Shown piece by piece: positions 1,446 through 49,681 of a stretch of DNA of 64,000 bases; within the stretch, counting starts at the first letter, position 1; each line of letters opens with the position of its first letter. A program made the position numbers and the translations under genes. The notes below the pieces were generated by a model, which had not been told where the DNA came from, made no database searches, and was given only the letters and a program-made list of their open reading frames with translations. This stretch comes from Candidatus Omnitrophota bacterium (GTDB lineage: Bacteria; Omnitrophota; Gorgyraeia; Zapsychrales; Zapsychraceae). The stretch spans positions 14,128 through 78,127 of the forward strand of contig JAHFGL010000003.1 of NCBI GenBank assembly GCA_023247445.1, read 5' to 3'.

Positions 1446-1586
1446 CGTCATTCTGAGCGATAGCGCACTGACTTTTCCATATTTATATTTAGATGAAGTC
1501 AGTACGTACCAACTTCATCTAAAACTATTAAGGAAAGTTGGTGCGAAGAATCTCCTGAGATCCTTCGGCTTTGCCTCAGGATGACG
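1446..1586 (+). mobile_element. MITE-like palindromic element, copy 1 (TIR + X hairpin + Y palindrome + TIR)
   Basis: cgtcattctgagcg ... cctcaggatgacg terminal inverted repeats; internal hairpin gtactgactt...aagtcagtac; palindrome ctcctgagatccttcg; near-identical copies at 25718, 39752 and 45686. Confidence 0.7.
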
Positions 1587-18484: not shown

Positions 18485-19990
18485 TTATCCGCTGGTTTTA
18501 TCCATCCACAAAGCATAAATTACCCAGAAAACGACTGTCGGTAAGGCCGCGTATAAAATGCGGTGTAAGGTGACTTGTAGCCACCAATCGATGGGGAAGT
18601 ACGTATTGATGAAGTAGTAAAAAGTAATGACCGCCGTATAAGCGATAAAAAATAGAGGGAAAATAATTATACGGGGATTTAATAAATGCTTATTGGTGCC
18701 GATTAGAATGGCGATCAAAAGAAGCAAAATAACATTGTACCCGTGCGGTAAGCTCATCCATAAACCATTGAGCCCAGGTAAAATAATTGGCCCAAAACTA
18801 AAAAGAATGATACATAGCTTTAATATTATCCAGCGTTGATCGCTTAAGAGTAACCCCGCCACTAAAACCAACCATAAGCCATTCCAATTTGGACTGACAA
18901 TTTCTGCTAAATAAAACGATAAAATATATTCTAATCTAAATAAGCTGACAGGTTTTATTGTTGAAACAAGACCATTAATCATGGTGATGTTTTTTGGTGC
19001 ATAAAATCCATAGAAAATAATGGATGGAATAGAAGCGATGGCGCCGGCAATAAAAAATGTCTTTAAGATTTTCCATTTATCCTTTGCTGAATCTTTCCAG
19101 AAAATATAAGGCACGGCTAAGCATAGAATGATGAGAGCGGCAATCAAGGCTTCACCTTTTGTAAAGCTTAAGAAAGCTAAGAAAGTTCCGGCGAGTAAAG
19201 CGTAAATGGGATGGTGGGTTTCTTTTAATTCGATTAGGCAAAAGAAGCTGGCCAAAAGATAAAAGCTCACAACGATGTCGCAGTATTGACTCAAAGATAA
19301 TTTAATATAAAAAGGCATGCTTAAAATGACGAGCGCGGTAAGAAAAGAAAATATACTTTTTGTTTTGTGCCTGAGGGCGAAAGAAAGTAGTCCGATGGTT
19401 AAAAAGGTAAATAAGAAAGAAGTGAAAATGGATGCTTCGACATCAGGTTGGTTGATGAATGTCCAACCCCAGAGAATGGTGCAGGGCAGAAATAAGGGAT
19501 AGTGTGGGCTTGATCGCCATAAAATAGAAGTAAACATTCGCTTCCAATCATCACCGCTTAAAAATAGAAATTTTGCTTTGAGATTCCATACCGACCACGC
19601 ATCCCATCCTCCGTAGGCATAAAAATGGGCATGGATCCATAATGGTAAAGAGATGATAATTAAAAATAGAAATGGGTAGAGAGCTTTTTGGCTAAAAGTG
19701 TTTGGTGGGAAAATTGGTGATTTATCTTTGTTCCACTTTAGAATTTGGATAATGGTTAGCAAACAAAGAACGATTAAATTTCCACTAATGATAAACAGGC
19801 GATTAAATTGATTAAATAAAATAAAACTAGAGAAAACAATGCTTGAACTTATACCAATGCCTAATCCAGCGGCCAAGAAAAGATGAATTGAAGGTGGTAT
19901 CTTGTGTTCTTTAGACGAAAAAAGGTTGATCGCTAAATATCCAATCGTAAAGGAGATAAAAAATGGTAAGTAGACTAATAAGAGATTCAT
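18485..19990 (-). CDS. polytopic membrane protein; paralog of the N-terminal half of the 998-aa protein
   Basis: 501 aa; shared blocks LAAGLGIGISSSIVF/LALGLGLGFSSFITF and YGGWDAWSVWNLKAKFLF/YGEWDAWAMWNLKTKFLL. Confidence 0.5.
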   Translation of the reverse strand: MNLLLVYLPFFISFTIGYLAINLFSSKEHKIPPSIHLFLAAGLGIGISSSIVFSSFILFNQFNRLFIISGNLIVLCLLTIIQILKWNKDKSPIFPPNTFSQKALYPFLFLIIISLPLWIHAHFYAYGGWDAWSVWNLKAKFLFLSGDDWKRMFTSILWRSSPHYPLFLPCTILWGWTFINQPDVEASIFTSFLFTFLTIGLLSFALRHKTKSIFSFLTALVILSMPFYIKLSLSQYCDIVVSFYLLASFFCLIELKETHHPIYALLAGTFLAFLSFTKGEALIAALIILCLAVPYIFWKDSAKDKWKILKTFFIAGAIASIPSIIFYGFYAPKNITMINGLVSTIKPVSLFRLEYILSFYLAEIVSPNWNGLWLVLVAGLLLSDQRWIILKLCIILFSFGPIILPGLNGLWMSLPHGYNVILLLLIAILIGTNKHLLNPRIIIFPLFFIAYTAVITFYYFINTYFPIDWWLQVTLHRILYAALPTVVFWVIYALWMDKTSG

Positions 19991-20418
19991 GGCTTTCTTC
20001 GGATTAATATCATTCCAAATTTATTTACAAACAAAGGTTCAGCATTTAATTCTTTAATTTTTTCAAGGGCCTGAAGATCGTTTTTACAGACTAAAAGAAT
20101 GAATTCATGATTTGTATTGTTGTAGTCAAGCACCGTGGGCGCCAAAATAAATTGAGCCTGAGAAAATAGTTTGTTTGATTCATCATCATTGGTGTCGCTA
20201 TAATAGCCCAAGAGGTTAATCTTTTTGGTAATGTTTTCTAATCCTAGGAATTTGCCCCCGATGACTTGATGCTTTAGATATTTTTTAAATGTTTTAATGC
20301 GGTTGACCTCGGGGATAAAGACAATAACATTAAAAATAATAATGGCCAGGAAGGAGACGATAAGAATTCTCTGGGGCAAAGATTTTGGCCAATTTATTTT
20401 AAATGAGGGCAACGTCAT
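19987..20418 (-). CDS. small single-TM protein; paralog of 23408-23869
   Basis: 143 aa; shares SQAQFILAPTVLDY / LQAQYFLAPTILEL with the 153-aa protein; 4-nt overlap with the downstream gene. Confidence 0.45.
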   Translation of the reverse strand: MTLPSFKINWPKSLPQRILIVSFLAIIIFNVIVFIPEVNRIKTFKKYLKHQVIGGKFLGLENITKKINLLGYYSDTNDDESNKLFSQAQFILAPTVLDYNNTNHEFILLVCKNDLQALEKIKELNAEPLFVNKFGMILIRRKP

Positions 20419-23411
20419 GGATTTATTTGCGGATTTGGTTTGGTGGCTAGTAGGGTGTTCGCCACATCAAAATTCTTTAAAACTTTTAGATTATATTTTG
20501 CCAAAACAAAGAAATCTTGGAGCCAGTCTTTACTTTCAGGTAAATGGCTCTTCGGGGTTGTTAGATAATAATAATCAAATATTCCATTGGGTCCTTGGCG
20601 GTTAACCTGTTTTAGCCATGTCAGATGATATTTTTCGCGGTAGAAATTAATACTTGGTTCAAAAAGCCAGTTGATCCCAAGGCTCACAGAATTTTCATTT
20701 AAGTTCTTCGTTTTGGGCGCATCTTGCATAATAAATTTTACGGCGTCTTTGGTTGACGCATCGAACTGCCATTCATAAAAGTATTTGATGTTAGCACACC
20801 CAAGAAAGTGGACGAAATAAATTGTTGTTAAAGCATAGAAAAAAGTTTGGGCGGATAATCTAAGGGCTTTCTGAGGAATCGATTGGGCTACTCCTATCAA
20901 GATGACCACAACCATCATAAAAAGAAAAACAAAATAAAGGGCTGTTCTTCCCATAACAAACTTTGTCCCTAAAATTTTCCATTGAAGGAAGATTAAGGAT
21001 GCGCAAAGAAATAGGATTGTTAGGATTCCCATTAAGAATTTATCAGTTGATGAGAACGGTTTTTTCATTATCAGTAGTTGCGCTAGATGGGCTACGCTAA
21101 GAGTTAAAATAGATATGATCAGAAATTTAATGATTAAAATAATATTTAGTCCATCGATAGCTTTTGCGTAAAGGGTGCTATCAATTAAACTTGTTACAGT
21201 GTCCGTCCAGAATCCTTTGTCCCCGCCATAATAAAGTTCATGATAAGTTAATAATTTTTGTAGCGGGACAATGTAAAGAGCCCCCACCACAATTGAACTT
21301 AAGATAATAGAAGGAAAGAGGTTTTTTAGTAGACGTTTAAATATTTCTTTTTCGCGAAATGATTGCAAAAGTTCAAAGCCAAATAGAAACATGATGATAG
21401 CTAGATGAATATGGAGAAAGGCGAGGTTAGATAAAGTAGCCAGAACTAATAACCAAGAGCAAAGGATTAAATTTTTTCTGTAAAGAAGAATGTCATTTGT
21501 CATCAGGATTTTAAAAAAATAATATAAACCCAAAGCCAGAAATCCTAGGCCCAACGCATACCCTCGGGCGCAGGAAAATAAATCTAGCATATAAGGATTG
21601 CACGTCAGCAAAAGAAGTCCTGCGATAAGACTTGGTCCACGTAGAACGATCGAACAAATTTTATAAGCAGCAAACAGAAAAAGCGCATGACCGATCAAAG
21701 CCGGAATTCTTATCGCAAATTCTGACAATCCAAAACAATTGACTGAAATTTTAATAAGTAAACTATTGAGCAGATGGTTGTTTGATGGGTGCGGCTGACT
21801 AAAGGTTAATATTTGAAGAAATGAGGCCGAGGCATGACGCAGATATGTTAACGCTTCATCATGGGTGATCGATATGTTGTAAGCACGGATGAGCGTATAA
21901 ATAAATAATCCCGCCATGATGAGAAAGCAGATCCAGTGAGTAATTCTATTTCTGTCATCCTGAGCGTAGCGAAGGATCTCAGGATTCTTACGTGGCTTGA
22001 GATTTTTTGCCTCGCTCTTGGCAGGCTCAGAATGTTGGGGTGATAACTTTGTTGTTTGGTCTGACCAATAACAAAAAAATGATAGAAAGAGAATGGAGGG
22101 CAAAAGCTGCAGGTAAAGGCGCTCCAGTGACATTGACAGCCACCAATGGATATCGATATTGGTGTTGACCAGATAGATAAAGATTAGGATCGCGATGTAA
22201 GTAATGATGGAGAAGCTAATAATTTTATTTTCTTTATAAAATAATTTTGGAAATTTTAGGATGCCCAACAAAATAACCAATAACCAAATAAAGCTCCATC
22301 GTTTATCAATGATCTCGTTGAATACTGTTTTTTGAATGAGCAGAAATTTTTGGGCCTGTGTAATGTTTAGCTGAACTGCTTTTAAGCTGGGAAGAATATC
22401 TTCGTTGGGCGGCGCCAGGAATACTTTGAAGATGATCGTTGGCAATGCGGCAACGATTAATCCTATCAACATAAAGCGAATCAGGCTCCAACTTGTTTTC
22501 TTGCTTATCGTTTTATCAAATATTAGATAAAGTGTCGTGACGCTTGCCAAGATCCCCGTCATTACCATGCCTTCATTCTTGATGAAGGACAAAAATCCCA
22601 GGAATAGTCCATAAAGAATAGCCACGCGGTGATCTTTTAAATGCATCATGATGATCATTGTGACAAATGCGGCCAAAAGATAATACGCTAAGACAATATC
22701 GGCATATTGGGCCGTCGACCAAAAAATGAAATAAGGATGAGATAAAAGTAATAAGGAGGCAAAAATTCCAGCGGGCTTTAAATTAAGATGCTTTAAGGCC
22801 GCATAGACTAAAAGACAGGCGCTGACCGTAAATAAAAAAGACGTTATAAGCGGAATTGGAAAAAGATTGTTGGCGAAAAAGGAATAAATCCAAACATTAA
22901 CAAATGGTAAGAAAAGTGGGTAGTCGGGATGAGTATGCCAGTTTAGGCCTGATAAAATATCTTGCCAGGGCGTTTGGCTAAAGAGGAGAAACTTGGTTTT
23001 TAAATTCCACATCGCCCAGGCGTCCCATTCGCCGTAGGGATGTTTTTGGATAAGGAATAAGATTATTCCAGACAAGATAAGCCAGCAACAAGCAATTAGA
23101 ATATCTAATGGTTTAAGATTTTTTATCGATTTTTTAAATTGGTCAACGAGTGATGAGGAGCGCAACGACGAGAAATTAAGATAGATTAATAGAATTAAGA
23201 AAAGAAGATTGGCCGTAACAATGGCCAACGCATTAAATTGACGCAGGAATAAGAAAGAAAAGAATGTAATAAATGAGGAGAATCCTAATCCAAGGCCAAG
23301 GGCGAGTAAGAGATGAAGGCTTAATGAAATTGGTTTTGTATTTTTTAATAAAAAAGAAATGGCGAGGAATCCAAGGCAAAAAGAAATAAGGTAGGGGAAA
23401 AAATGGATCAT
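20415..23411 (-). CDS. large polytopic membrane protein: N-terminal module like 18485-19990, an RPE/MITE-encoded linker, and a C-terminal GT-C (PMT/ArnT-like) glycosyltransferase module
   Basis: 998 aa; C-half has ISITHDEALTYLRHA and NNHLLNSLL first-loop motifs typical of GT39/GT83; linker ...HSEPAKSEAKNLKPRKNPEILRYAQDD is encoded by the repeat at 21954-22035. Confidence 0.55.
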   Translation of the reverse strand: MIHFFPYLISFCLGFLAISFLLKNTKPISLSLHLLLALGLGLGFSSFITFFSFLFLRQFNALAIVTANLLFLILLIYLNFSSLRSSSLVDQFKKSIKNLKPLDILIACCWLILSGIILFLIQKHPYGEWDAWAMWNLKTKFLLFSQTPWQDILSGLNWHTHPDYPLFLPFVNVWIYSFFANNLFPIPLITSFLFTVSACLLVYAALKHLNLKPAGIFASLLLLSHPYFIFWSTAQYADIVLAYYLLAAFVTMIIMMHLKDHRVAILYGLFLGFLSFIKNEGMVMTGILASVTTLYLIFDKTISKKTSWSLIRFMLIGLIVAALPTIIFKVFLAPPNEDILPSLKAVQLNITQAQKFLLIQKTVFNEIIDKRWSFIWLLVILLGILKFPKLFYKENKIISFSIITYIAILIFIYLVNTNIDIHWWLSMSLERLYLQLLPSILFLSFFCYWSDQTTKLSPQHSEPAKSEAKNLKPRKNPEILRYAQDDRNRITHWICFLIMAGLFIYTLIRAYNISITHDEALTYLRHASASFLQILTFSQPHPSNNHLLNSLLIKISVNCFGLSEFAIRIPALIGHALFLFAAYKICSIVLRGPSLIAGLLLLTCNPYMLDLFSCARGYALGLGFLALGLYYFFKILMTNDILLYRKNLILCSWLLVLATLSNLAFLHIHLAIIMFLFGFELLQSFREKEIFKRLLKNLFPSIILSSIVVGALYIVPLQKLLTYHELYYGGDKGFWTDTVTSLIDSTLYAKAIDGLNIILIIKFLIISILTLSVAHLAQLLIMKKPFSSTDKFLMGILTILFLCASLIFLQWKILGTKFVMGRTALYFVFLFMMVVVILIGVAQSIPQKALRLSAQTFFYALTTIYFVHFLGCANIKYFYEWQFDASTKDAVKFIMQDAPKTKNLNENSVSLGINWLFEPSINFYREKYHLTWLKQVNRQGPNGIFDYYYLTTPKSHLPESKDWLQDFFVLAKYNLKVLKNFDVANTLLATKPNPQINP
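21954..22035 (-). mobile_element. MITE-like element, copy 2 (short, degenerate), translated in-frame within the 998-aa ORF
   Basis: gtcatcctgagcgtagcgaaggatctcagg...gcaggctcagaatg; minus-strand translation RYAQDD from the TIR. Confidence 0.55.
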
Positions 23412-23869
23412 CGTTTTCTTTGCGTCAAGGCCTGTCCGTAGTCATTGTGGGCCACTGGACGGGCATTAATTTTTCTTAACACCATTGGAAGAATTGTATA
23501 ATCAGGAAAGTCGACAATGTTAAATACTGGATTGGGTCGATTGAGTTCTAAGATCGTTGGCGCCAAGAAATACTGTGCTTGTAAGAAAATCCCATCGTTT
23601 TTTTCTCGCGACATATCTTTGCTGGTTAAATAGCCAACACGTTCTATCCCAGCGAGTTTAGGTTTGAAGGTGAGAAATTGATACCCTGGCTCGTAATAAG
23701 TGCTATAACCACTGGCAACATGGGCCATGACACTAATATAAAGAGAAATAATATTATGGATAAGAAGTCCGCAGGTTAATGCCAAAATGAGGGTGTTTAC
23801 GTGAAACCATTTTTTGGGGAACATAGGCGAAGCTATTTTATTACTGGACCTTTGAGAAAACAAGCTCAA
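23408..23869 (-). CDS. small single-TM protein; paralog of 19987-20418
   Basis: 153 aa; overlaps the start of the 998-aa gene by 4 nt. Confidence 0.45.
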   Translation of the reverse strand: MSLFSQRSSNKIASPMFPKKWFHVNTLILALTCGLLIHNIISLYISVMAHVASGYSTYYEPGYQFLTFKPKLAGIERVGYLTSKDMSREKNDGIFLQAQYFLAPTILELNRPNPVFNIVDFPDYTILPMVLRKINARPVAHNDYGQALTQRKR

Positions 23870-24139: not shown

Positions 24140-25156
24140 TTGGTTCATGTCGGGATTATCGGTTGTGGTCATTGGGGGCCCAACCACGTTCGTATTTTTT
24201 CACAGCTCTTAAATTCTAAGGCCTTGATGTGCGCTGATTTTGATGAAGGCCGGCTTAAAACGATAAAAAGTTTATTTCCTCAGATTGAGACAACCACAGA
24301 TTATAAGAAGATTTTAGCGAATAAAGAGATCCATGCGGTCTGCATCGCGACTCCAACCAATACACATTATTCGATAGCCAAAGAAGCCTTGGAACATGAC
24401 AAACATGTCTTGTGTGAAAAGCCTCTTGCGTTAACTTCCTCCGAATGTGAAGAGCTCAAAAATCTGGCCCGTGACAAAAATCGGCTGCTTATGGTTGGAC
24501 ATGTTTTTCTTTTTAATAAAGGAATTTTGTGGCTTAAGGAATATATTCAGTCAGGGGAGTTGGGGCATATTCATTATGCGTATGCTACAAGAACTAATCT
24601 GGGGCCGTTTCGTTATGATGTTAATGCGCTTTGGGATTTGGCGCCGCATGATATTTCAATCTTTAATTTTTTGTTTAATAGTGCGCCGGTAAATGTCTCG
24701 GCCCGCGGACAAAAATGTTTGGGGAATTCGCAGGAAGATTTGGCCTTTGCCACGTTAGAGTATCCGGGGAATTGTATGGCGAACGTCCATGTCAGCTGGC
24801 TTGATCCTAAAAAGGTTCGACAGATTACAATCGTTGGTGATAAGAAAATGGTGGTTTGGGATGATTTGGATAATCTCGGGCCCATTCAGCTTTATGATAA
24901 ACATGTCGAGAAAACGTCAACCTTCTATGCCACGTATGGTGAATTTCAGTTATTGTCTAAAGAAGGAAATATTACGATTCCCAAAATAGGATTTAATGAG
25001 CCCCTTAAAGCGCAGGCTGAATATTTTATTAATTGTATTGAGCAAAATAAAAATCCTGATGTCTGTGACGCGCAAAAAGGATTGGACGTCACAAAAACTT
25101 TGTGTGCGATTCAGCAATCTATGGATCGTAAAGGTGAATGCGTGGTGGTTAAGTGA
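24140..25156 (+). CDS. Gfo/Idh/MocA family NAD-dependent oxidoreductase (WbpB-like UDP-sugar 3-dehydrogenase candidate)
   Basis: VGIIGCGHWGPNHVR Rossmann motif and EKPLALTSSECEEL block; TTG start after aggag. Confidence 0.75.
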   Translation: MVHVGIIGCGHWGPNHVRIFSQLLNSKALMCADFDEGRLKTIKSLFPQIETTTDYKKILANKEIHAVCIATPTNTHYSIAKEALEHDKHVLCEKPLALTSSECEELKNLARDKNRLLMVGHVFLFNKGILWLKEYIQSGELGHIHYAYATRTNLGPFRYDVNALWDLAPHDISIFNFLFNSAPVNVSARGQKCLGNSQEDLAFATLEYPGNCMANVHVSWLDPKKVRQITIVGDKKMVVWDDLDNLGPIQLYDKHVEKTSTFYATYGEFQLLSKEGNITIPKIGFNEPLKAQAEYFINCIEQNKNPDVCDAQKGLDVTKTLCAIQQSMDRKGECVVVK

Positions 25157-25710
25157 GTTATTTTAAACATGAAAAAGCGATGGTCCATCCTGACGCCAAA
25201 ATTGGGGAAGGAACGCGTTGTTGGGCCAACACCAATGTTCAAGCAGGCGCTGTCATTGGTCAAGGATGTAATATCTGCGATGGCAGCTTTGTTGAAAAGG
25301 GGGCGGTCGTTGGCCATCATGTGACGATCAAACACCATGTCTCTATTTTTGATGGGGTGACTATTGAAGATGATGTTTTTATTGGATCCAATATTGCTTT
25401 TATCAATGATCGTTATCCGCGCAGCAATCGTAAAGATGCATGGACGCTTGAGAAGACGTTGGTTAAAAAGGGAGCAACCATTGGAACAAATGCCGTTATC
25501 TTATGTGGCTTAACGATTGGTCAATATGCGCTTGTGGCCGCAGGAGCGGTTGTTGTTAAGAATGTTTTAGATCACGAGGTTGTGGCTGGAAATCCTGCAC
25601 GAGCGAAAGGTTATGCCTGCCACTGCGGACGTCCGCTTGATGCCAAATATAAATGTGCGAAATGTAAACGGCAATATCGTAAGAAAAAATTTGGATTGGA
25701 AGAAAAATAA
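25153..25710 (+). CDS. hexapeptide-repeat (left-handed beta-helix) acetyltransferase, WbpD/PglD-like, with a C-terminal Cys-rich tail
   Basis: repeated [LIV]G.....G hexads (IGSNIAFINDRY, IGTNAVILCGLTIGQYALVAAGAVV); tail CHCGRPLDAKYKCAKCKRQY; 4-nt overlap with the upstream gene. Confidence 0.7.
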   Translation: MSYFKHEKAMVHPDAKIGEGTRCWANTNVQAGAVIGQGCNICDGSFVEKGAVVGHHVTIKHHVSIFDGVTIEDDVFIGSNIAFINDRYPRSNRKDAWTLEKTLVKKGATIGTNAVILCGLTIGQYALVAAGAVVVKNVLDHEVVAGNPARAKGYACHCGRPLDAKYKCAKCKRQYRKKKFGLEEK

Positions 25711-25717
25711 ATTTATT

Positions 25718-25890
25718 GTCATTCTTCGTTCCGCAAAGCGGAACGAAGAATCTCAGGACACTTAAAACTTATGGGATCCTTCGCATCAACTTTCCTTTAA
25801 TATTTTAGAGGAAGTTGGTACGTACTGACTTCATCTAAATATAAATTATGGAAAAGTCAGTACGCTACGCTCCATTAGACGAGAGCGTCG
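25718..25890 (-). mobile_element. MITE-like element, copy 3 (opposite orientation to copy 1)
   Basis: gtcattcttcgttccgcaaagcggaacgaagaatctcagg...gggatccttcgc...ggtacgtactgacttcatctaaatataaattatggaaaagtcagtacgctacgctc. Confidence 0.7.
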
Positions 25891-25903
25891 AATAAAATAT
25901 AAA

Positions 25904-26635
25904 ATGTCGAAAATTCTGGTCTGTCCGGTTGCCTTTAATGAACATGTGAAGTTAAAGAATGCGATTGAACGCTTTTTGAAATCTGCTGCTTATGGCAAAG
26001 TCGATTATTTAATCGTTGATGACGGTTCAACTGACGGCACAACCGAAATGATTGTAAGTTACGCCTCTTCGGGAGTTAAGACGATTAAGCATGGGCAGCG
26101 AAGCGGCGTTGGCGTTGCGATTCGCACGGCAATCAACCATGCTAAAGTTCGTGGTTATGAAATTTTAGTGATCATGGCGGGCAATGATAAAGATAATCCC
26201 GAAGAGATTCCACGGTTGATTGATCCGATTGTTAAAGAAGGTTATGATTTTGTGCAAGGTTCACGTTATAAGGGCGCCAATGGCATCGGCGGTGATATGC
26301 CGTTTTATCGAAAGGTAGCAACGAAGCTTCATCCACTTCTTATGTCGATTATTACGGGCCAGAAGATAACAGACTCGACTAATGGTTTTCGAGCTTTTCG
26401 ACTTTCGATTTTTGATAATAAAGATATTAATATTGATCAACCGTGGCTGGACAAATATGAACTTGAGCCGTATTTGCTTTTTAAAGCAATTAAGTTGGGA
26501 TATAAATTTCAAGAAGCGGCTGTTACAAAGATTTATCCATCTAAGAAGCTTGGTTACACCAAGATGCAACCGTTTATCGGCTGGTGGAGCATTTTAAGAC
26601 CAGTAATTTTTTTAGGTTTAGGAATCAAAAAATAA
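25904..26635 (+). CDS. GT2 family glycosyltransferase, polyprenyl-phosphate sugar synthase-like (DPM1/CsbB/ArnC-like)
   Basis: DYLIVDDGSTDGT nucleotide-sugar-binding motif; 243 aa with a C-terminal hydrophobic tail. Confidence 0.75.
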   Translation: MSKILVCPVAFNEHVKLKNAIERFLKSAAYGKVDYLIVDDGSTDGTTEMIVSYASSGVKTIKHGQRSGVGVAIRTAINHAKVRGYEILVIMAGNDKDNPEEIPRLIDPIVKEGYDFVQGSRYKGANGIGGDMPFYRKVATKLHPLLMSIITGQKITDSTNGFRAFRLSIFDNKDINIDQPWLDKYELEPYLLFKAIKLGYKFQEAAVTKIYPSKKLGYTKMQPFIGWWSILRPVIFLGLGIKK

Positions 26636-37757: not shown

Positions 37758-38972
37758 TTGATTAAGATCATGAATCAATTTTTAAAAACGAAGAAAACGC
37801 AAATCATTGGTCCTGATAATAAACCGATTACGCTTCGAGGTGTCAATTTCGGCGGGTGGCTGATGATGGAGGCCTATATTCTTTATGCGCCCAATAATCC
37901 GGAACGAGGGTTCAAGGAAGATTTTGCCAAAAAGTTAGGGCCCGCCGCGCTTAAATCATTTGAGAAAAATTTTCGCGCCAATTTTGTTTGTGAAGATGAT
38001 TTTAAGAATATTGCCCAGCTTGGATTTAATTGTGTCCGCGTGCCGTTTAACCATCGCCTTGTTGAATCGACACCGTATCATTATTCTAAGGAAGGCCTAA
38101 AAGTTTTGGATGATGTGCTCGCGTGGGCCAAGAAATATAAAGTTTATGTTATCTTGGATCTTCACGGCGCAGCTGGGTGTCAAAATCACGATTGGCACTC
38201 TGATAGTTTTGGCAAAGCCGAGCTTTGGACGAACAAAGTTTATCAAAAACGAACCTTAGCCCTTTGGAAATTTATTGCTGACCGTTATAAAAATGAACCA
38301 TATTTGGCTGGATATGATTTACTCAACGAATCGATACTTACTGACACAAAGCTTTTGAATAGATTTTATAAGGAGATTATTGGCGGCATTCGCCACGTTG
38401 ATAAAAATCATATTTTATTTATCGAGGGAAACCGTTGGGCGCAAGATATTGAGTGCTTGGAAGAATTTGATGATGATAATTATGCCTTGAGTATTCATAA
38501 TTATGAGCCGATTGATTTTACATTTAACTTTGTGCCGCAGTTGTCGTATCCACTCAAATCGAAACAGGGGAGTTGGGATAAAAAGACAACGTATCAACAT
38601 TTATTAAAGCATAAAAAGTTATCAGATGCGCGCGGCGTGCCGATTTTCGTTGGAGAATTTGGCATTAATGCCCGTAATAGTTTTTATGGTGAAGATAAAT
38701 GGCTCGATGACACACTTCGTTGTTATAAAGAACTTGGTTTTCATTGGACTTATTGGACTTATAAAGCGATTAAGAATTTTGTTTTTCCCGATGGGGTTTA
38801 CAGTTATCTTAGCAATCCGCCGTGGGTCAATCGTGTTGGCCCCAAGATGGGTTGGGATACGTTCGCCAGCCACTGGCCTACACGACAAAAAGAGATGATT
38901 GAATCATGGCAGACCAAGAATTTTGAACCAAATACAGCCGTACTTAAAACATTACAAAAATATGCTCGATAA
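37758..38972 (+). CDS. glycoside hydrolase family 5
   Basis: GYDLLNES (NEP-like acid/base region), HNYEP, and FVGEFG nucleophile motif. Confidence 0.55.
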   Translation: MIKIMNQFLKTKKTQIIGPDNKPITLRGVNFGGWLMMEAYILYAPNNPERGFKEDFAKKLGPAALKSFEKNFRANFVCEDDFKNIAQLGFNCVRVPFNHRLVESTPYHYSKEGLKVLDDVLAWAKKYKVYVILDLHGAAGCQNHDWHSDSFGKAELWTNKVYQKRTLALWKFIADRYKNEPYLAGYDLLNESILTDTKLLNRFYKEIIGGIRHVDKNHILFIEGNRWAQDIECLEEFDDDNYALSIHNYEPIDFTFNFVPQLSYPLKSKQGSWDKKTTYQHLLKHKKLSDARGVPIFVGEFGINARNSFYGEDKWLDDTLRCYKELGFHWTYWTYKAIKNFVFPDGVYSYLSNPPWVNRVGPKMGWDTFASHWPTRQKEMIESWQTKNFEPNTAVLKTLQKYAR

Positions 38973-39762
38973 AATTACCAGCCTCACTAATCCAAAAGTT
39001 AAAGAACTCGTTAAACTGCGCGAAGCGGCTCAGCGAAAGAAGTCGGGGGTCATTGTCGTTGAAGGATATCGTGAAATTGAGCGTGCTATTGAAGCGAAGG
39101 TGAACTTTAAGGAATTTTATATCTGTAAATATTTTGTTAAAACGTTAGCGCAAAAAGAAACGCTTAAGAAAATCATGGCGCTTAATGTCCCGATTTATGA
39201 GACAAGCAGCGAAGTGTATGAAAAAATTTCATATGGTGACCGCAATGAAGGATTGATGGCGATTGCTCAGCCAAAGTATTCATCATTCTTCGATTTGCCA
39301 TCGAAAGACGATTTGTTTATTCTGGTTATTGAGCAGGTTGAGAAGCCTGGAAATTTGGGCGCGATCCTGCGTACTGCTGATGGCGTGGGCGTTGATGGCA
39401 TCATCGTCTGTGATGCCAAAACGGATATTTATAATCCAAATGTGATTCGTTCAAGTTTGGGAACAATTTTTTCAACTAAAGTGGTTGTTAGTTCTGTTGC
39501 CCCAACTTTTGATTTCTTAAAGTCGAAGGGAGTCAAGATTTGTGCGACGAGTCCTGATGCCGATTTTATTTATTCCAAGGCTGATTTAAAAGCGCCGGTT
39601 GCCATTGTCGTTGGCAGTGAACAGGAGGGCTTAAGTCGATTTTGGTTAAGTAAAGCGGATTTAAAGGTAAGAATTCCAATGCGTGGGAAAGCTGATTCGC
39701 TTAATGTCTCGACATCAACGGCAATTTTGCTTTATGAAGCGCTGAGACAATCGTCATCCTGA
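38962..39762 (+). CDS. TrmH/SpoU family RNA methyltransferase; its stop codon lies in the MITE TIR
   Basis: LGAILRTADGVGVDGII and VVGSEQEGLS SPOUT motifs; last codons caa tcg tca tcc tga are the MITE TIR cgtcatcctga. Confidence 0.7.
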   Translation: MLDKITSLTNPKVKELVKLREAAQRKKSGVIVVEGYREIERAIEAKVNFKEFYICKYFVKTLAQKETLKKIMALNVPIYETSSEVYEKISYGDRNEGLMAIAQPKYSSFFDLPSKDDLFILVIEQVEKPGNLGAILRTADGVGVDGIIVCDAKTDIYNPNVIRSSLGTIFSTKVVVSSVAPTFDFLKSKGVKICATSPDADFIYSKADLKAPVAIVVGSEQEGLSRFWLSKADLKVRIPMRGKADSLNVSTSTAILLYEALRQSSS

Positions 39763-39900
39763 AGGAGCAAAGCGTACTGACTTTTCCATAATTTATATTT
39801 AGATGAAGTCAGTACGTACCAACTTCCTCTAAAATATTAAAGGACAGTTGGTGCGACTGAAGGATCTCTTAAGAGATCCTTCGCTTACGCTCAGGATGAC
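39752..39900 (+). mobile_element. MITE-like element, copy 4 (full length, same orientation as copy 1)
   Basis: cgtcatcctgaaggagcaaagcgtactgacttttccataatttatatttagatgaagtcagtacgtacc...gaaggatctcttaagagatccttcgcttacgctcaggatgacg. Confidence 0.75.
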
Positions 39901-42612: not shown

Positions 42613-42678
42613 GTCATCCTGAGGAACGCAGTGACGAAGGATCTCTTAAGAGATCCTTCGCTGGCGCTCAGGATTACG
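42613..42678 (+). mobile_element. MITE-like element, copy 5 (short form: TIR + Y palindrome + TIR)
   Basis: gtcatcctgaggaacgcagtgacgaaggatctcttaagagatccttcgctggcgctcaggattacg. Confidence 0.65.
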
Positions 42679-44997: not shown

Positions 44998-47900
44998 ATG
45001 TATATTTACAAGAAAAACCAAAACTCATGTGGTAGCCGCCGGCTTATTTCAACCGTCTTACTGATAGCCTTTGGATTGACCTCATTTTTGCCTCCCAATC
45101 TTAGCTGGGCGCAGGTTGTGCCCTTAACAGGACTCAATCTTCCTATTCCGGGAACGGTCATCAATTTAAGTCCCGCCTTTATTCCCGCGCATGTCACCGG
45201 CATTGCCATTCATCCCGACGATCCATTTAAATTCGATTTTATTATTGATACCGGTGATGATCATTTAGAAGGTGAGGCGTTTAAACAGGAATCGATGAAG
45301 CTGATTAAATATTTTATGGCCTCCCTAACGGTGCCGGAGAATCAGATGTGGGTTAATCTTTCGCCATATGAAAAGAATCGTATCATTGCGGATGGACTGG
45401 GGCAGACGGAGATGGGCCGCGACATGCTTGGCCAAGATTATATTTTGAAACAATTAACGGCATCTTTAATGTCACCTGAGAATGAATGGGGACAAAAGTT
45501 TTGGGATCGTGTTCATAAAGAAGTTAAAGAAAAATATGGCAACATTGATATTCCAACGGATACGTTTAACAAAATTTGGATTCTGCCGGATAAGGCGTCG
45601 GTTTATGTTCATGACAATCGCGCGTTTGTTGTTGAGAATCATTTAAAGGTGATGTTGGAGGAAGATTACGTGGCGCTTTCTAATAGTCATCCTGAAGGAG
45701 CGAATGCGACTGAAGGATCTCCGAAGAGATCCTTCGCATCAACTTTCCTTAATGGTTTTGAGAAGAAGTTGGTACGTACTGACTTCCTCCAAATTGAATT
45801 AAGGAAAAGTCAGTACGCTGCGCTCAGGATGACGGAGCCAATCAAAGAAATTTTAAAAGAAATTCTCCTTCCCGAAATCGAGAAGGAAGTTAACAACGGC
45901 AAGAATTTTGCCCAGCTGCGACAGATTTTTTATTCAATGATTTTAGCCACGTGGTATAAACAGAATTTGAAAAAGAGCTTGTTCACCAAAAATTACGCCA
46001 ATCAAAACAAGATTGAAGGAATCGACCTTCAAGATAAAAAAATCAGTGAGAAGATTTACAACCAATATTTAGAAGCCTTCCAAAAAGGTGTCTCCAATTT
46101 AATTAAAGAAGAGTATGATCCGCAAACTCAGGAAGTTATCCCGCGCAAATATTTCTCGGGAGGAGTTCAGGGAGTCGAAGACGCGGCGATCTTGACAAGT
46201 CTGCCTTCGAGTTGGATGGAAGCTCAAATAAATCGCGATCATGCGATGGTCACCGCCGGCATCGATCCTCTCGGCCCTCAAGCTTCCGATGAGGCGATGG
46301 TGACTTATGCCGAAGGAACAGATCAACAATACCTCAAGAGGCTGGATAAGATGTTTCGGGCAATTGCTGGTTCCGCCGATGTGGATGGTTCGGCTTATAA
46401 AGATTTTCAAAGAGGAGTTTCTCAATTAATAACAGATGGCGTGATCACGGGTTTAGTTGCAAGAAGGCAAGTTTGGGATTTTATGAAATCTGTGGCCCAA
46501 GGTGTTGCGTCAGGCGATCGGACAGAATTGCAACAACTGAGATTCCTCTTGAATTCTCCCGAGGAGATTACGTTATCTCATTTTATGAGAATAAGGATTC
46601 GAAAAGAAAAAACAAGTAAACGAATGATTAGAGTTGTTCAAAGAGTCCCTGGAATGCTTGCTCATTCCCAAGCGTTGTTGCAGGACATTGTGGGTAAAAT
46701 AAAACGTAATGAGCCGGTTAAAATATGTTTTGTCTGTAATATGAATGTTCACCGCAGTGCCGTCGCCCATGTCTTAGTAATGGATCAAGCTCAAAAATTA
46801 GGAAGGACCAATGTTGAGATTGTCTCTGGCGGGACATTTGATTCAAATGAACATTTAAATTCTAAATTAAGATCTGGATTCAAGAAAATTTTAGAGGCCA
46901 GGGGTGTTGACAGCGACATCATTAATCGATTTCGTACCAGAGATGTAACTAAAGAAGATTTAGAAGATTCTCAGTTAATTGTGATTGCAGAACCAATGAA
47001 CCTAGAGAGGTTGTCAGAGTTTGAAAATGAGGTTCCAGGGTTGTATGAGAAGATGATATTTTTTACATCGATTAATCCCGTCGTAGATGCCCAGCATCCG
47101 GATCATGTGATGCCAGATCCTTATGATTCAAGTAAGATATCAGCAGAAGGGTTGGTTGATTTAATAGAACAAGAAATAATTCCGCGGTTGTTTCCAACCG
47201 ACCCCGCCCTCCAGCCTTTGGCTGGAGAGGCCTCGGCATCCCGTAAGCGGGATGACCGGGCGATGTTGACTAAAACGGAACAAACTCCTCAAGCTCTGGT
47301 TGAAGATTTAAAACGCGCTGCTGCCGAGGATCCTGGCAATATTGTGGATGTTTTGTATGACCGTGGTTTTAGAAAACCGGATGAACCATTCAACGTGTAT
47401 CTTATGATAAAGAATCATAAAGGTCCGATCTTGGATATTAGAACTGGTGAGGAGTTGCAAAATTGGCCAGCCGAGCAGTTAGTCGGCCGTCAGTGGAGAA
47501 GGGCCGACGTTTATATTAGAAAAGATGACCCAAGAGGTTTGGGAGTTTTGGTGATCGATTCTGATAATATTTTGACCGCGCGCGAAAGTCATCAATTTAG
47601 AGAAAGAAATTGGCGGGATTTGGCTCAAAAAAGAGGACTGATTGTTTATACCGGAGTCAATGCCATCAATCGTGAGTTGATAACCGCGCATCGAATTTTA
47701 AAAGAAGACGGCACGATTGTTGAAAAGGAATATGGTGATTCACCGCCATTCGACTTAAAGGTCACAAAAGAGTCAATCCTGATACGTATTGGCGATGGTG
47801 TTTTTTTTATCGAGTTGGATGAGTCGATGCTGACATACTCTGAAGACCAATGGGATAAAGTCAATCAAACGTACGAGAGCCTTCGCAAATTAGCCCAGAG

Positions 47901-49578
47901 TATTAAAGATGATCTTGATGCAAAGTTAGGGCCTGGATTTGTTGAGGAGTTAACGGGGTTAGTTGATCGATTACCCGAAAATGAAACTCAGGCCAGAGAA
48001 AGGTTAGGCGAAGATGACGCAATGAAATTGTTGGAGGACACCAACCGATTAGCCAATCTTGCTTTTGTGACAATCGATCAAATTTTAACATCATCTCATG
48101 AAAAGATTACATCATTAGGTCTTGATAATATTCTTCAGTCTGATTTAGAAAGTCCAAGGTATCCGATAAAAGAAGGATTTCGCAGCTACGACATAATTCG
48201 TGATTTTACTGAAAAATTGGGCAAGGTTAAAGGGGCTATGGATGGAATGAGTTCTCGGAATCTTAGTCGAGATACAGTTTATGGAGAATTTAATAGTTGT
48301 AAGCTTTTCTCGTCAATGGCTTTAAAAAGAATTGTAGCATTTGTCAACTTATTGGATCATGTTGTTGATCTACAAAGCGAGTCCTTTGAGAAATTTAAAG
48401 AGGAGATAAAATCAAGTACCGTATCTTTTAGAGAATCAAAAAGTTTACCCGAGTATATTTATCGATATTTTTTAATCCCGTATCAAGAAGCTTTGGCAGA
48501 GCGAGAAGCCATTGCTGAACCTATTCCCGATGAGGCGCTGTTGGCTCACCCGGAAGATTTGGTTGGGGGAGAAATAAATTTAAGATATTTGCGACGGATT
48601 CAAAAAATTGTTAATTCCAGCAAGGCTGATACAAAAAAGATCGCCATGTATGTGGGGGCTGGGGCGGATATCAGTGCTGCGCTTCTAGCGATTGATGCGA
48701 CGGACTATATTTTTATCGATCAAATTCCATTTGATACGGATAAACGAAAGGTCAGCGCCAAGACATTGGCTCGCGACATGGAAATTTATTTCCATGACAA
48801 GATGGGCAAAGGATATGGCAATTATTTGGCGATGAAGTCGGTTGGTCGGATTCGGCCATTTTTTATAAAAGAATTAGAATTGTTAGGAATTGATCCTAAG
48901 GATGTTTCAATTAAAAAAGATAAAAATAATCCAAATGTTTTTAGAATTAGTTTTGAGTATAAAGGCCAGAGGAGAACGGTTACCTATGTTGGTAATGCGG
49001 ATGCGACAAGGCCAGCCAAATTCGCCTCGCTTATTAAACGTTTGGGCCGAGCTGATTTTCTAATGATTAGAGCCGGCAATTACAGTGAGCGCAATCCAAA
49101 ACCATTATTAACGCGGACTTTTGTTATGAAACATTTAAAACCATCAGGACATCTTATTGTAGATTCCCTCGATGGGTTGACGGCCAAGGATGGACTACGT
49201 GATTTAGTTGAGCAGAAGCATTTGCGTGATGCCGTTTTAACTAGACTGGAACGCGATGGGGCGGGGTTAGGGTATGGTGATCGTTACGCCCCGCAATCAT
49301 ATATTTATATAAACAATCTCGATGAGGCGCTAGTGACGGATAAAGCAGTGACTAGTGAAGTTCCTGGTGGGATTGATTTTAATCCTGCGAATATGAATTT
49401 CAATTCAAACGGCGATAAGATTCAAATCAACTTACCGATGGCAGATCCCGCGATGCTGGGAGTAGAATCACCCGTCCGTGGTTATCAACCGGTCATTATT
49501 GAAATCACTCCGATAACAAATTTTCCGCTATTGCTCGGACTTAAAGATGAGCACGTGACGCAGATTTCTTATAACTAA
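44998..49578 (+). CDS. giant secreted multidomain protein (1526 aa) with an embedded LMW protein-tyrosine-phosphatase-like domain and an in-frame MITE
   Basis: signal peptide ...FLPPNLSWA-QV; CX5R(S) P-loop VKICFVCNMNVHRSAVAH plus PDPYDS Asp loop at about aa 570-730; possible Rossmann-like MYVGAGADISAALLAIDATDYIFIDQ near the C-terminus. Confidence 0.65.
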   Translation: MYIYKKNQNSCGSRRLISTVLLIAFGLTSFLPPNLSWAQVVPLTGLNLPIPGTVINLSPAFIPAHVTGIAIHPDDPFKFDFIIDTGDDHLEGEAFKQESMKLIKYFMASLTVPENQMWVNLSPYEKNRIIADGLGQTEMGRDMLGQDYILKQLTASLMSPENEWGQKFWDRVHKEVKEKYGNIDIPTDTFNKIWILPDKASVYVHDNRAFVVENHLKVMLEEDYVALSNSHPEGANATEGSPKRSFASTFLNGFEKKLVRTDFLQIELRKSQYAALRMTEPIKEILKEILLPEIEKEVNNGKNFAQLRQIFYSMILATWYKQNLKKSLFTKNYANQNKIEGIDLQDKKISEKIYNQYLEAFQKGVSNLIKEEYDPQTQEVIPRKYFSGGVQGVEDAAILTSLPSSWMEAQINRDHAMVTAGIDPLGPQASDEAMVTYAEGTDQQYLKRLDKMFRAIAGSADVDGSAYKDFQRGVSQLITDGVITGLVARRQVWDFMKSVAQGVASGDRTELQQLRFLLNSPEEITLSHFMRIRIRKEKTSKRMIRVVQRVPGMLAHSQALLQDIVGKIKRNEPVKICFVCNMNVHRSAVAHVLVMDQAQKLGRTNVEIVSGGTFDSNEHLNSKLRSGFKKILEARGVDSDIINRFRTRDVTKEDLEDSQLIVIAEPMNLERLSEFENEVPGLYEKMIFFTSINPVVDAQHPDHVMPDPYDSSKISAEGLVDLIEQEIIPRLFPTDPALQPLAGEASASRKRDDRAMLTKTEQTPQALVEDLKRAAAEDPGNIVDVLYDRGFRKPDEPFNVYLMIKNHKGPILDIRTGEELQNWPAEQLVGRQWRRADVYIRKDDPRGLGVLVIDSDNILTARESHQFRERNWRDLAQKRGLIVYTGVNAINRELITAHRILKEDGTIVEKEYGDSPPFDLKVTKESILIRIGDGVFFIELDESMLTYSEDQWDKVNQTYESLRKLAQSIKDDLDAKLGPGFVEELTGLVDRLPENETQARERLGEDDAMKLLEDTNRLANLAFVTIDQILTSSHEKITSLGLDNILQSDLESPRYPIKEGFRSYDIIRDFTEKLGKVKGAMDGMSSRNLSRDTVYGEFNSCKLFSSMALKRIVAFVNLLDHVVDLQSESFEKFKEEIKSSTVSFRESKSLPEYIYRYFLIPYQEALAEREAIAEPIPDEALLAHPEDLVGGEINLRYLRRIQKIVNSSKADTKKIAMYVGAGADISAALLAIDATDYIFIDQIPFDTDKRKVSAKTLARDMEIYFHDKMGKGYGNYLAMKSVGRIRPFFIKELELLGIDPKDVSIKKDKNNPNVFRISFEYKGQRRTVTYVGNADATRPAKFASLIKRLGRADFLMIRAGNYSERNPKPLLTRTFVMKHLKPSGHLIVDSLDGLTAKDGLRDLVEQKHLRDAVLTRLERDGAGLGYGDRYAPQSYIYINNLDEALVTDKAVTSEVPGGIDFNPANMNFNSNGDKIQINLPMADPAMLGVESPVRGYQPVIIEITPITNFPLLLGLKDEHVTQISYN
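45686..45834 (-). mobile_element. MITE-like element, copy 6, full length and translated in-frame inside the giant ORF
   Basis: gtcatcctgaaggagcgaatgcgactgaaggatctccgaagagatccttcgc...ggtacgtactgacttcctccaaattgaattaaggaaaagtcagtacgctgcgctcaggatgacg encodes SHPEGANATEGSPKRSFASTFLNGFEKKLVRTDFLQIELRKSQYAALRMTE. Confidence 0.7.
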
Positions 49579-49601: not shown

Positions 49602-49681
49602 GTCATCCTGAGGAACGAAGTGACGAAGGATCTCCGATTATTTTAAGTACTTTGAGATTCTTCGCTTCGCTCAGAATGACG
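49602..49681 (+). mobile_element. MITE-like element, copy 7 (short form)
   Basis: gtcatcctgaggaacgaagtgacgaaggatctccgatta...gagattcttcgcttcgctcagaatgacg. Confidence 0.65.

Follow-up and report, generated by a model that had tools for sequence, protein, structure and literature searches.

The operon and its 998-residue open reading frame

The window analysed in this work is the whole 64-kb stretch of the Candidatus Omnitrophota contig JAHFGL010000003.1. Its minus strand carries an open reading frame (ORF) of 998 amino acids (aa) that passes through a short palindromic repeat, designated copy B, which belongs to a family of repeats dispersed over the window. The ORF consists of an N-terminal module (N-module), a repeat-coded tether, and a C-terminal module (C-module). 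The coordinates of these parts, of the neighbouring genes, and of the other repeat copies are listed in Table 1. A preliminary description of this DNA had stated that the ORF reads straight through the repeat, and no internal stop was found. Judged from the sequence, the repeat is read in frame within this ORF. The N half had also been described as a paralog of the free-standing 501-aa gene, and the two proteins do align end to end (residues 7-500 of the 501-aa protein against residues 4-454 of the ORF). The small proteins of 153 and 143 aa are paralogs of each other. The gene order at the locus is thus small153, N~C, small143, and N', where N~C is the fused ORF and N' is the 501-aa paralog. 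The three other junctions in this operon are ATGA overlaps, and the junction between the N- and C-modules is the sole exception and the site of the repeat.

Copy B has a perfect 12-nt end, GTCATCCTGAGC, at 21954-21965 in the minus-strand gene, and its other end, GCTCAGAATGTT at 22025-22036, is degenerate. Copy B aligns from end to end with copies D and F, and its inner arms (CGAAGGATCTC and GAGATTTTTTG) align with the arms of the other copies. The 3' end shows one edit relative to copy C, and the 5' end is the degenerate one. The repeat-coded peptide, HSEPAKSEAKNLKPRKNPEILRYAQDD (HSEPAK...RYAQDD), comprises the 27 residues 460-486 and is coded at 21954-22034. RYAQDD had been attributed to the terminal inverted repeat (TIR) itself. 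This holds for AQDD, which is coded by the TIR, while RYAQDD as a whole lies within the repeat-coded residues. The G+C content of copy B is 50.6%, compared with 36-37% in both flanking modules. Its RNA hairpin of -24.6 kcal/mol (z -2.65) is the weakest of all the copies, and two of the three frames in the direction of the gene are open through it. An argument from an element length of 82 nt (1 mod 3) was dropped because the TIR alignment gives 83 nt.

Table 1. Coordinates of the ORF, its parts, the neighbouring genes, and the repeat copies in the window (TM, transmembrane; GT-C, glycosyltransferase fold C)
Feature	Position	Strand	Remarks
998-aa ORF: N-module, repeat-coded tether, C-module	20415..23411	-	Single terminal stop
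N-module, aa 1-459	22035..23411	-	GT-C fold; ~13 predicted TM helices
Repeat copy B, 83 nt between two 12-nt TIRs	21954..22036	-	Codes aa 460-486; canonical orientation on minus strand
C-module, aa 487-998	20415..21953	-	GT-C fold by predicted structure; ~11 TM helices and C-terminal soluble domain; invariant H-D-E after TM1
153-aa small membrane protein	23408..23869	-	Conserved upstream partner of N-module; ATGA overlap with 998-aa ORF
143-aa small protein of second cassette	19987..20418	-	ATGA overlaps at both sides
501-aa free-standing N-module paralog	18485..19990	-	32% identity end to end, E 2e-55
Copy A	1447..1585	+	Intergenic, composite
Copy G	25718..25880	+	Degenerate composite between acetyltransferase and GT2 genes
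Copy C	39753..39900	+	Fills gap between two co-directional genes; TIR gives TGA stop of upstream gene
Copy D	42613..42677	+	65-nt core form; 10 nt after one gene, 2 nt before next
Copy E	45686..45833	+	In frame inside 1526-aa ORF 44998-49578
Copy F	49602..49680	+	Intergenic, 79 nt

Both modules in other genomes

A word-indexed protein search with the whole 998-aa ORF returned only three proteins. An exhaustive HMMER search of 1.84 billion representative proteins returned 8417 matches, and the counts that follow are taken from the best 150 of them (149 without the query). Almost all of these (147 of 149) align to one half only, with 56 aligning to the N half (residues 1-459) and 91 to the C half (residues 482-998). 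All but five of the 147 are of single-module size, and those five carry an unrelated extension. The median length of the homologs is 454 aa for the N-type and 508 aa for the C-type. The ends of the N-type proteins project to residue 457 of the query (interquartile range 455-460) and the starts of the C-type proteins project to residue 481 (interquartile range 475-484). The element had been said to sit exactly between two modules that also exist separately, and these two positions do bracket residues 460-486. No alignment of a single-module homolog among the best 150 of the 8417 matches covers residues 460-481, and no second N+C fusion was found among them. When the module profiles were run on the collected proteins, no other protein with both modules was found. 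The two modules are separate proteins in every other genome sampled.

Other combinations were identified for each module. Three proteins (P0133, P0057, and P0002) consist of an N-module and an unrelated second membrane part. Another protein, P0094 (3051 aa), consists of repeated YfhO-type and PMT_2-type modules followed by a member of the C-module family (residues 2550-3048). The linker before the C-module of P0094 is ~30 residues and the module upstream of it is not of the N family. The C-module can therefore follow a GT-C-like module after a linker of ~30 aa. P0094 also illustrates that GT-C modules form tandem arrays in which no repeat is involved.

The sole Pfam match of the ORF is PMT_2 in the N half, at 25.9 bits against a cutoff of 26.1 and thus below threshold. 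The C half has no Pfam match even at E 10 and no sequence match in the PDB, and NCBIfam gave no match for either half. The fold was therefore used to annotate the C half, and its predicted structure is that of a GT-C fold. The N half also has a GT-C fold, and its comparison gave AglB (20.4), GPI-MT1 (20.0), Pmt4 (19.7), and ArnT (18.2). The preliminary description had called the C half a PMT/ArnT-like GT-C module. The predicted structure agrees with this, while the Pfam match to PMT_2 lies in the N half and not in the C half. The conserved acidic residues expected in the first extracytoplasmic loop of GT-C proteins were found, and the topology model predicts that they lie outside the membrane. 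The profiles of the N- and C-modules match each other with a probability of 19%, which is not significant, and they were therefore treated as distinct GT-C families. When the full ORF and both sets of homologs were aligned jointly with MAFFT, the C homologs were placed wrongly against the N half, and this alignment was not used.

Both modules retain the invariant residues of their families. The HDEALTY and NNHLLN motifs that had been reported in the C half are present, and HDE and H59 are invariant in the family. The invariants kept in the C-module are HDE (aa 517-519, directly after TM1), H59 of NNHLLN, and R-G-Y of ARGY, and the NNHLLN residues other than H59 are at least 90% conserved. The invariants kept in the N-module are G127, W129, and D130 of GEWDAW (after TM4), together with QYxD and K-x-E (KNEG). 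A few homologs have Gly instead of E128 in GEWDAW.

Related loci were fetched with both profiles, 80 genomic loci with the C profile and 80 metagenome loci with the N profile. The best identity is 46% among the former and 41% among the latter, and the best homologs overall are 44-46% identical. No close relative of the genome of the window was found in any collection searched. The repeat is absent from all 80 genome loci retrieved with the C profile. In 48 of the 80 metagenome loci, the gene directly upstream of the N-type gene encodes a homolog of the small protein. The small and N-type genes therefore form a conserved cassette, which is tandemly duplicated in loci L100 and L106 as it is in the window. 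The small membrane protein itself (143 or 153 aa; window 18485-23869, loci L081-L147) has no Pfam family and carries the conserved motif QAQ(Y/F)xLAPT.

A C-type gene lies directly downstream of the N-type gene in only two of the 80 metagenome loci, L146 and L156. Both loci encode the small (142-182 aa), N-type (497-506 aa), and C-type (524 aa) proteins in three separate genes in the same order as the window. The junction between the N- and C-type genes consists of a stop, one nucleotide, and a start (TGA-n-TTG) in both. These two loci are unfused counterparts of the arrangement in the window, and distant ones (~30% identity). Among the 80 genome loci, one has an N-type gene nearby, downstream of the C-type gene and hence in the opposite order. 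Comparison with related genomes had been proposed as a check, and it yielded two loci with two unfused genes and, for want of a close relative, no empty site.

These loci bear on whether the ORF is an artefact of assembly or sequencing, arising either from an indel in the repeat (for instance in its A6 run) or from a false join across it. Misassembly typically occurs at repeats, the DNA comes from a metagenome assembly, and a change of one base in the element would separate the two frames. The gene order small, N, C matches that of L146 and L156. The stop of the C-module overlaps the start of the next gene by ATGA, and the C-module therefore belongs to this operon, which argues against a false join. 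Copy B has diverged from the other copies and therefore shares few long k-mers with them. The identical 998-aa protein is recorded with the same gene order on an NCBI contig (149 kb) and an ENA contig (22.9 kb), and these two records may derive from the same reads. We consider an artefact to be very improbable.

It is also highly unlikely, in our judgement, that the DNA is real and the product is not a working tandem enzyme, so that the operon would be damaged and the C-module would be made from the internal Met499 or not at all, as a neutral or slightly harmful accident that is bound for decay. An open in-frame result would be expected by chance from ~1/9 to 2/9 of insertions at the junction (two of three frames are open and one third of lengths fit). 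The N-termini of seven of the 91 C-type homologs project to aa 496-501, near Met499, and the residual hairpin of copy B could impede ribosomes. Against such damage stands the retention of every family-invariant residue in both modules. Copy B is also the most decayed copy, which suggests that it has resided there for long without the loss of either module. A start at Met499 would leave 14 residues of TM1, compared with 24 in the model. Neither a promoter nor a terminator, or anything resembling one, was seen in the orientation of the gene at the N/C junction.

The repeat family and the proposed origin of the fusion

At least seven copies of the repeat, each of 65-163 nt, were identified in the window and none of them codes for a transposase. 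The 12-nt TIRs are GTCATCCTGAGC and GCTCAGGATGAC. The TIR 12-mer has nine matches against 0.15 expected; four copies carry it at both ends and three at a single end. An 18-mer from the TIR has four matches against 0.00 expected, and the inner arm has 16 against 0.77 expected. All copies fold into strong hairpins, with z of -4.5 to -9.7 for those other than copy B. The family is modular. Copies D, F, and B have a core of ~65 nt that consists of the outer TIR and the GAAGGATCTC hairpin. The composite copies A, C, E, and G (139-163 nt) add a second hairpin module, ACTGACTT.../...AAGTCAGT with CCAACTT/AAGTTGG, which lies on either side of the core hairpin (copy C compared with copies E and G). Rfam contains no family for the repeat and its sole match in the window is a tRNA. 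The TIR sequence and the repeat-coded peptides were also searched for in the literature, where only unrelated primers and words matched.

The canonical orientation of the repeat is that of the host or upstream gene in seven of seven copies, and the base after the copy is G in six of the seven. No direct repeat that could be a target-site duplication was found in the 12-20 nt flanks inspected around any of the seven copies. The repeat had been labelled a miniature inverted-repeat transposable element (MITE), and this is therefore a loose label. Its terminal inverted repeats, small size, and many dispersed copies fit the label, while the target-site duplication is lacking. No paper that links Omnitrophota with MITEs was found in the literature searched. 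The shared orientation, the G, and the lack of a target-site duplication together suggest strand-specific insertion (as in the repetitive extragenic palindromes, REP, or the IS200/IS605 insertion sequences) or selection at the RNA level, and not a classical cut-and-paste MITE.

Copies C and D take up nearly all of the gap between co-directional genes. Copy C fits its gap by -10/+8 nt, overlapping the end of gene 38899-39762 by 10 nt with the next gene 8 nt on, and the terminal repeat GTCATCCTGA therefore supplies the TGA stop of that gene. Copy D fits by +10/+2 nt between a stop and the next ATG. Copies B and E share one reading frame at their 5' ends, which leaves the TGA of the TIR out of frame; copy C is read in the frame in which this TGA is the stop.

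Copy E is the other copy that lies within a reading frame. It is 148 nt long, forms a hairpin of -67 kcal/mol, and codes for ~50 residues (SHPEGANATEGSPKRSFAS...SQYAALRMT). The frame used is the only one free of stops, and a shuffled sequence is open in ~5% of cases. An Omnitrophota homolog (53% identity) that lacks copy E aligns straight across its site with a gap of ~35 residues. Copy E is therefore an insertion into one gene, like those of the Rickettsia palindromic elements (RPEs). The homologs of copies B and E differ in this respect, since those of copy E align continuously across the insertion and those of copy B end or begin there as separate proteins.

The host gene of copy E (44998-49578, plus strand) begins with ~400 residues that comprise a signal peptide and a conserved domain without a Pfam match. 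More than 2300 relatives were identified, and nearly all of the few named ones belong to Candidatus Omnitrophota. Their C-terminal domains vary (kinase, DnaJ, macro, PGK, methyltransferase, and WD40), and the one encoded here is a low-molecular-weight phosphatase. The N-terminal part looks like a lineage-specific module that carries many enzymes.

We regard it as somewhat probable that copy B created the fusion by landing on a tight gene junction. The family normally lodges between co-directional genes in the orientation of transcription, and the fate of the upstream stop would depend on the frame of the TGA in the TIR. At the N/C site, the repeat would have landed on the tight junction of two GT-C genes in one operon, where its TGA fell out of frame and the element had no stop in the frame being read. 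An insert of 83 nt would have shifted the upstream frame onto that of the downstream gene. The resulting chain, presumably made and working, would comprise the N-module (1-459), a hydrophilic net-positive tether of 27 residues (460-486), and the C-module (487-998).

The junction was reconstructed by excising 21954-22036. This leaves an N gene of 460 codons that ends in ...KLSPQK-TAG, one spacer nucleotide, and the C frame from codon 490 (509 codons). Both lengths match the medians of the homologs and the geometry matches that of L146 and L156. The upstream flank ...AAGTTATCACCCC is joined directly to the downstream AGAAATAGAATTACTCACTGG in this geometry, and the join with the restored stop is CCCCAGAAATAG. 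A frameshift meets a stop within two codons with a chance of 0.10-0.15. The downstream flank AGAAATAGA-ATT resembles that of copy C, GAGAAATC-ATG.

Several points weigh against this origin. Removal of 81 or 84 nt keeps a continuous, fused ORF (the in-frame joins are CCCCAAAGAAAT or CCCAGAAAT). The boundary of the element cannot be fixed, as there is no target-site duplication and six of the seven copies are followed by G, and excision of copies C and D to compare the resulting gene ends did not fix it either. The start of the reconstructed C gene is ATT, and no ATG, GTG, or TTG occurs in frame for 53 codons upstream. The reconstruction is therefore only suggestive. In addition, the empty site that preceded the insertion is unobserved since no close relative was found, and adjacency of N- and C-type genes is rare (two of 80 N loci and, in the opposite order, one of 80 C loci). 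Copy E sits in frame inside a gene that existed as a single gene before it.

The same observations bear on the alternative that the fusion is older than the repeat, and that the element inserted in frame into a short linker and was tolerated as RPEs are in loops. The in-frame position of copy E within a conserved single gene, the continuity of the ORF after removal of 81 or 84 nt, and the missing canonical start codon for a separate C gene are consistent with it. So are the natural fusions of the N-module to other membrane modules in P0133, P0057, and P0002 and the position of the C-module after GT-C-like modules in P0094. However, the best matches from the 1.84 billion proteins include no such fusion, and a score of ~110 bits per half would have sufficed for one to appear among them. 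An N-type gene is followed by a C-type gene in L146 and L156 only, where the two are unfused, and the family places its intergenic copies at gene junctions. Once the repeat-coded residues are taken away, the linker consists of the normal C-terminal tail of an N-type protein and an N-terminal tail shorter than normal for a C-type protein. Almost no linker would thus be left, which favours a fusion made by the repeat. We consider the older fusion unlikely. The preliminary description had offered both creation of the fusion and insertion into a pre-existing linker, and the evidence favours creation without proving it.

The topology of the chain was modelled from predicted helices and the positive-inside rule. 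The model predicts an N-module of 13 TM helices with the invariant polar motifs outside and the C-terminus inside, and TM1 of the C-module would lead out to the HDE loop. The tether region has 39 residues between helices with eight K+R, and the K+R counts are 18 inside and eight outside. The tails of the free-standing homologs are mildly positive at both termini. The fusion would therefore be topologically permissible and the tether would be cytoplasmic.

A broader reading is that this transcription-oriented repeat family of an uncultured lineage routinely rewrites gene ends, by supplying a stop (copy C), ~35-50 residues (copy E), or the cytoplasmic tether of a functional single-chain tandem enzyme made from two genes that were coupled in translation (copy B). 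We put this forward tentatively, as possible and not as probable. If true, the window would show mobile repeats in the act of building multidomain membrane proteins.

The genes divergent from the operon (24140-26635, plus strand) encode a UDP-GlcNAc 3-dehydrogenase-like protein and a NeuD/PglB-type acetyltransferase, followed by copy G and a GT2 protein. The GT2 protein (25904-26635, 243 aa) is most like polyprenyl-phosphate hexose transferases. These neighbours fit a lipid-linked sugar pathway, and all of them score below curated cutoffs and provide context, not proof.

Comparison with known systems

In-frame repeats are known mainly from Rickettsia and enterobacteria, where they are usually passengers in one protein or short C-terminal extensions. 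The exhaustive search gave thousands of relatives for both modules in the window, with a single module in every top match. If the fusion by the repeat is true and functional, it would exemplify a concrete mechanism, open to dating, by which membrane proteins gain domains, and would test in nature how short the linker of a tandem GT-C enzyme can be. It would also hint that two GT-C families work together with their small partner as a single glycosylation machine. The locus is a warning for annotators as well, since a long 'fusion' ORF in a repeat-rich metagenome genome may depend on one repeat copy. The general kind of event is known, whereas no description of a repeat that serves as a tether between two complete enzymes was found in a limited literature search, and a clean gene fusion such as this one is unusual.

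Two GT-C membrane modules also lie side by side in the Pmt1-Pmt2 heterodimer and in EmbA-EmbB, but those are separate polypeptides. Contact between the N- and C-modules or sharing of a substrate has no support from this analysis. P0094 resembles the ORF in being a GT-C chain that ends in the same C-module family after a linker of similar length, whereas its upstream module differs from the N family.

The REP and bacterial interspersed mosaic element (BIME) repeats and the IS200/IS605 elements resemble the repeat described here in their hairpins at gene ends, the absence of a target-site duplication, and the orientation bias, which is 7/7 in the window. The elements in the window differ from simple REP hairpins in their long terminal inverted repeats and nested modules. 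No RAYT or TnpA gene was seen, although no search was aimed at one.

The enterobacterial repetitive intergenic consensus (ERIC) and RU-1 repeat units at the 3' ends of genes remove the stop and extend the protein (Delihas 2007, PMC2759123). Copy B is similar in that a repeat at a gene end would remove the stop and add repeat-coded residues. In the ERIC/RU-1 cases the extension ends within the repeat or shortly behind it, whereas the frame of copy B runs into the next gene and yields a chain of two enzymes.

The RPEs are short dispersed palindromic repeats that lie in frame within genes and code for a hydrophilic peptide while the host protein stays intact (Ogata et al. 2000, as summarised in PMC10969869). 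In-frame MITEs and RPEs within genes are well described (PMC10969869). The repeat family in the window is similar to RPEs as an in-frame palindromic repeat, and copy E behaves exactly so. It differs in that most copies are intergenic and the host belongs to a different phylum (Omnitrophota). Copy B differs further in its position, which is not inside one protein but between two complete enzymes that other genomes encode in separate genes.

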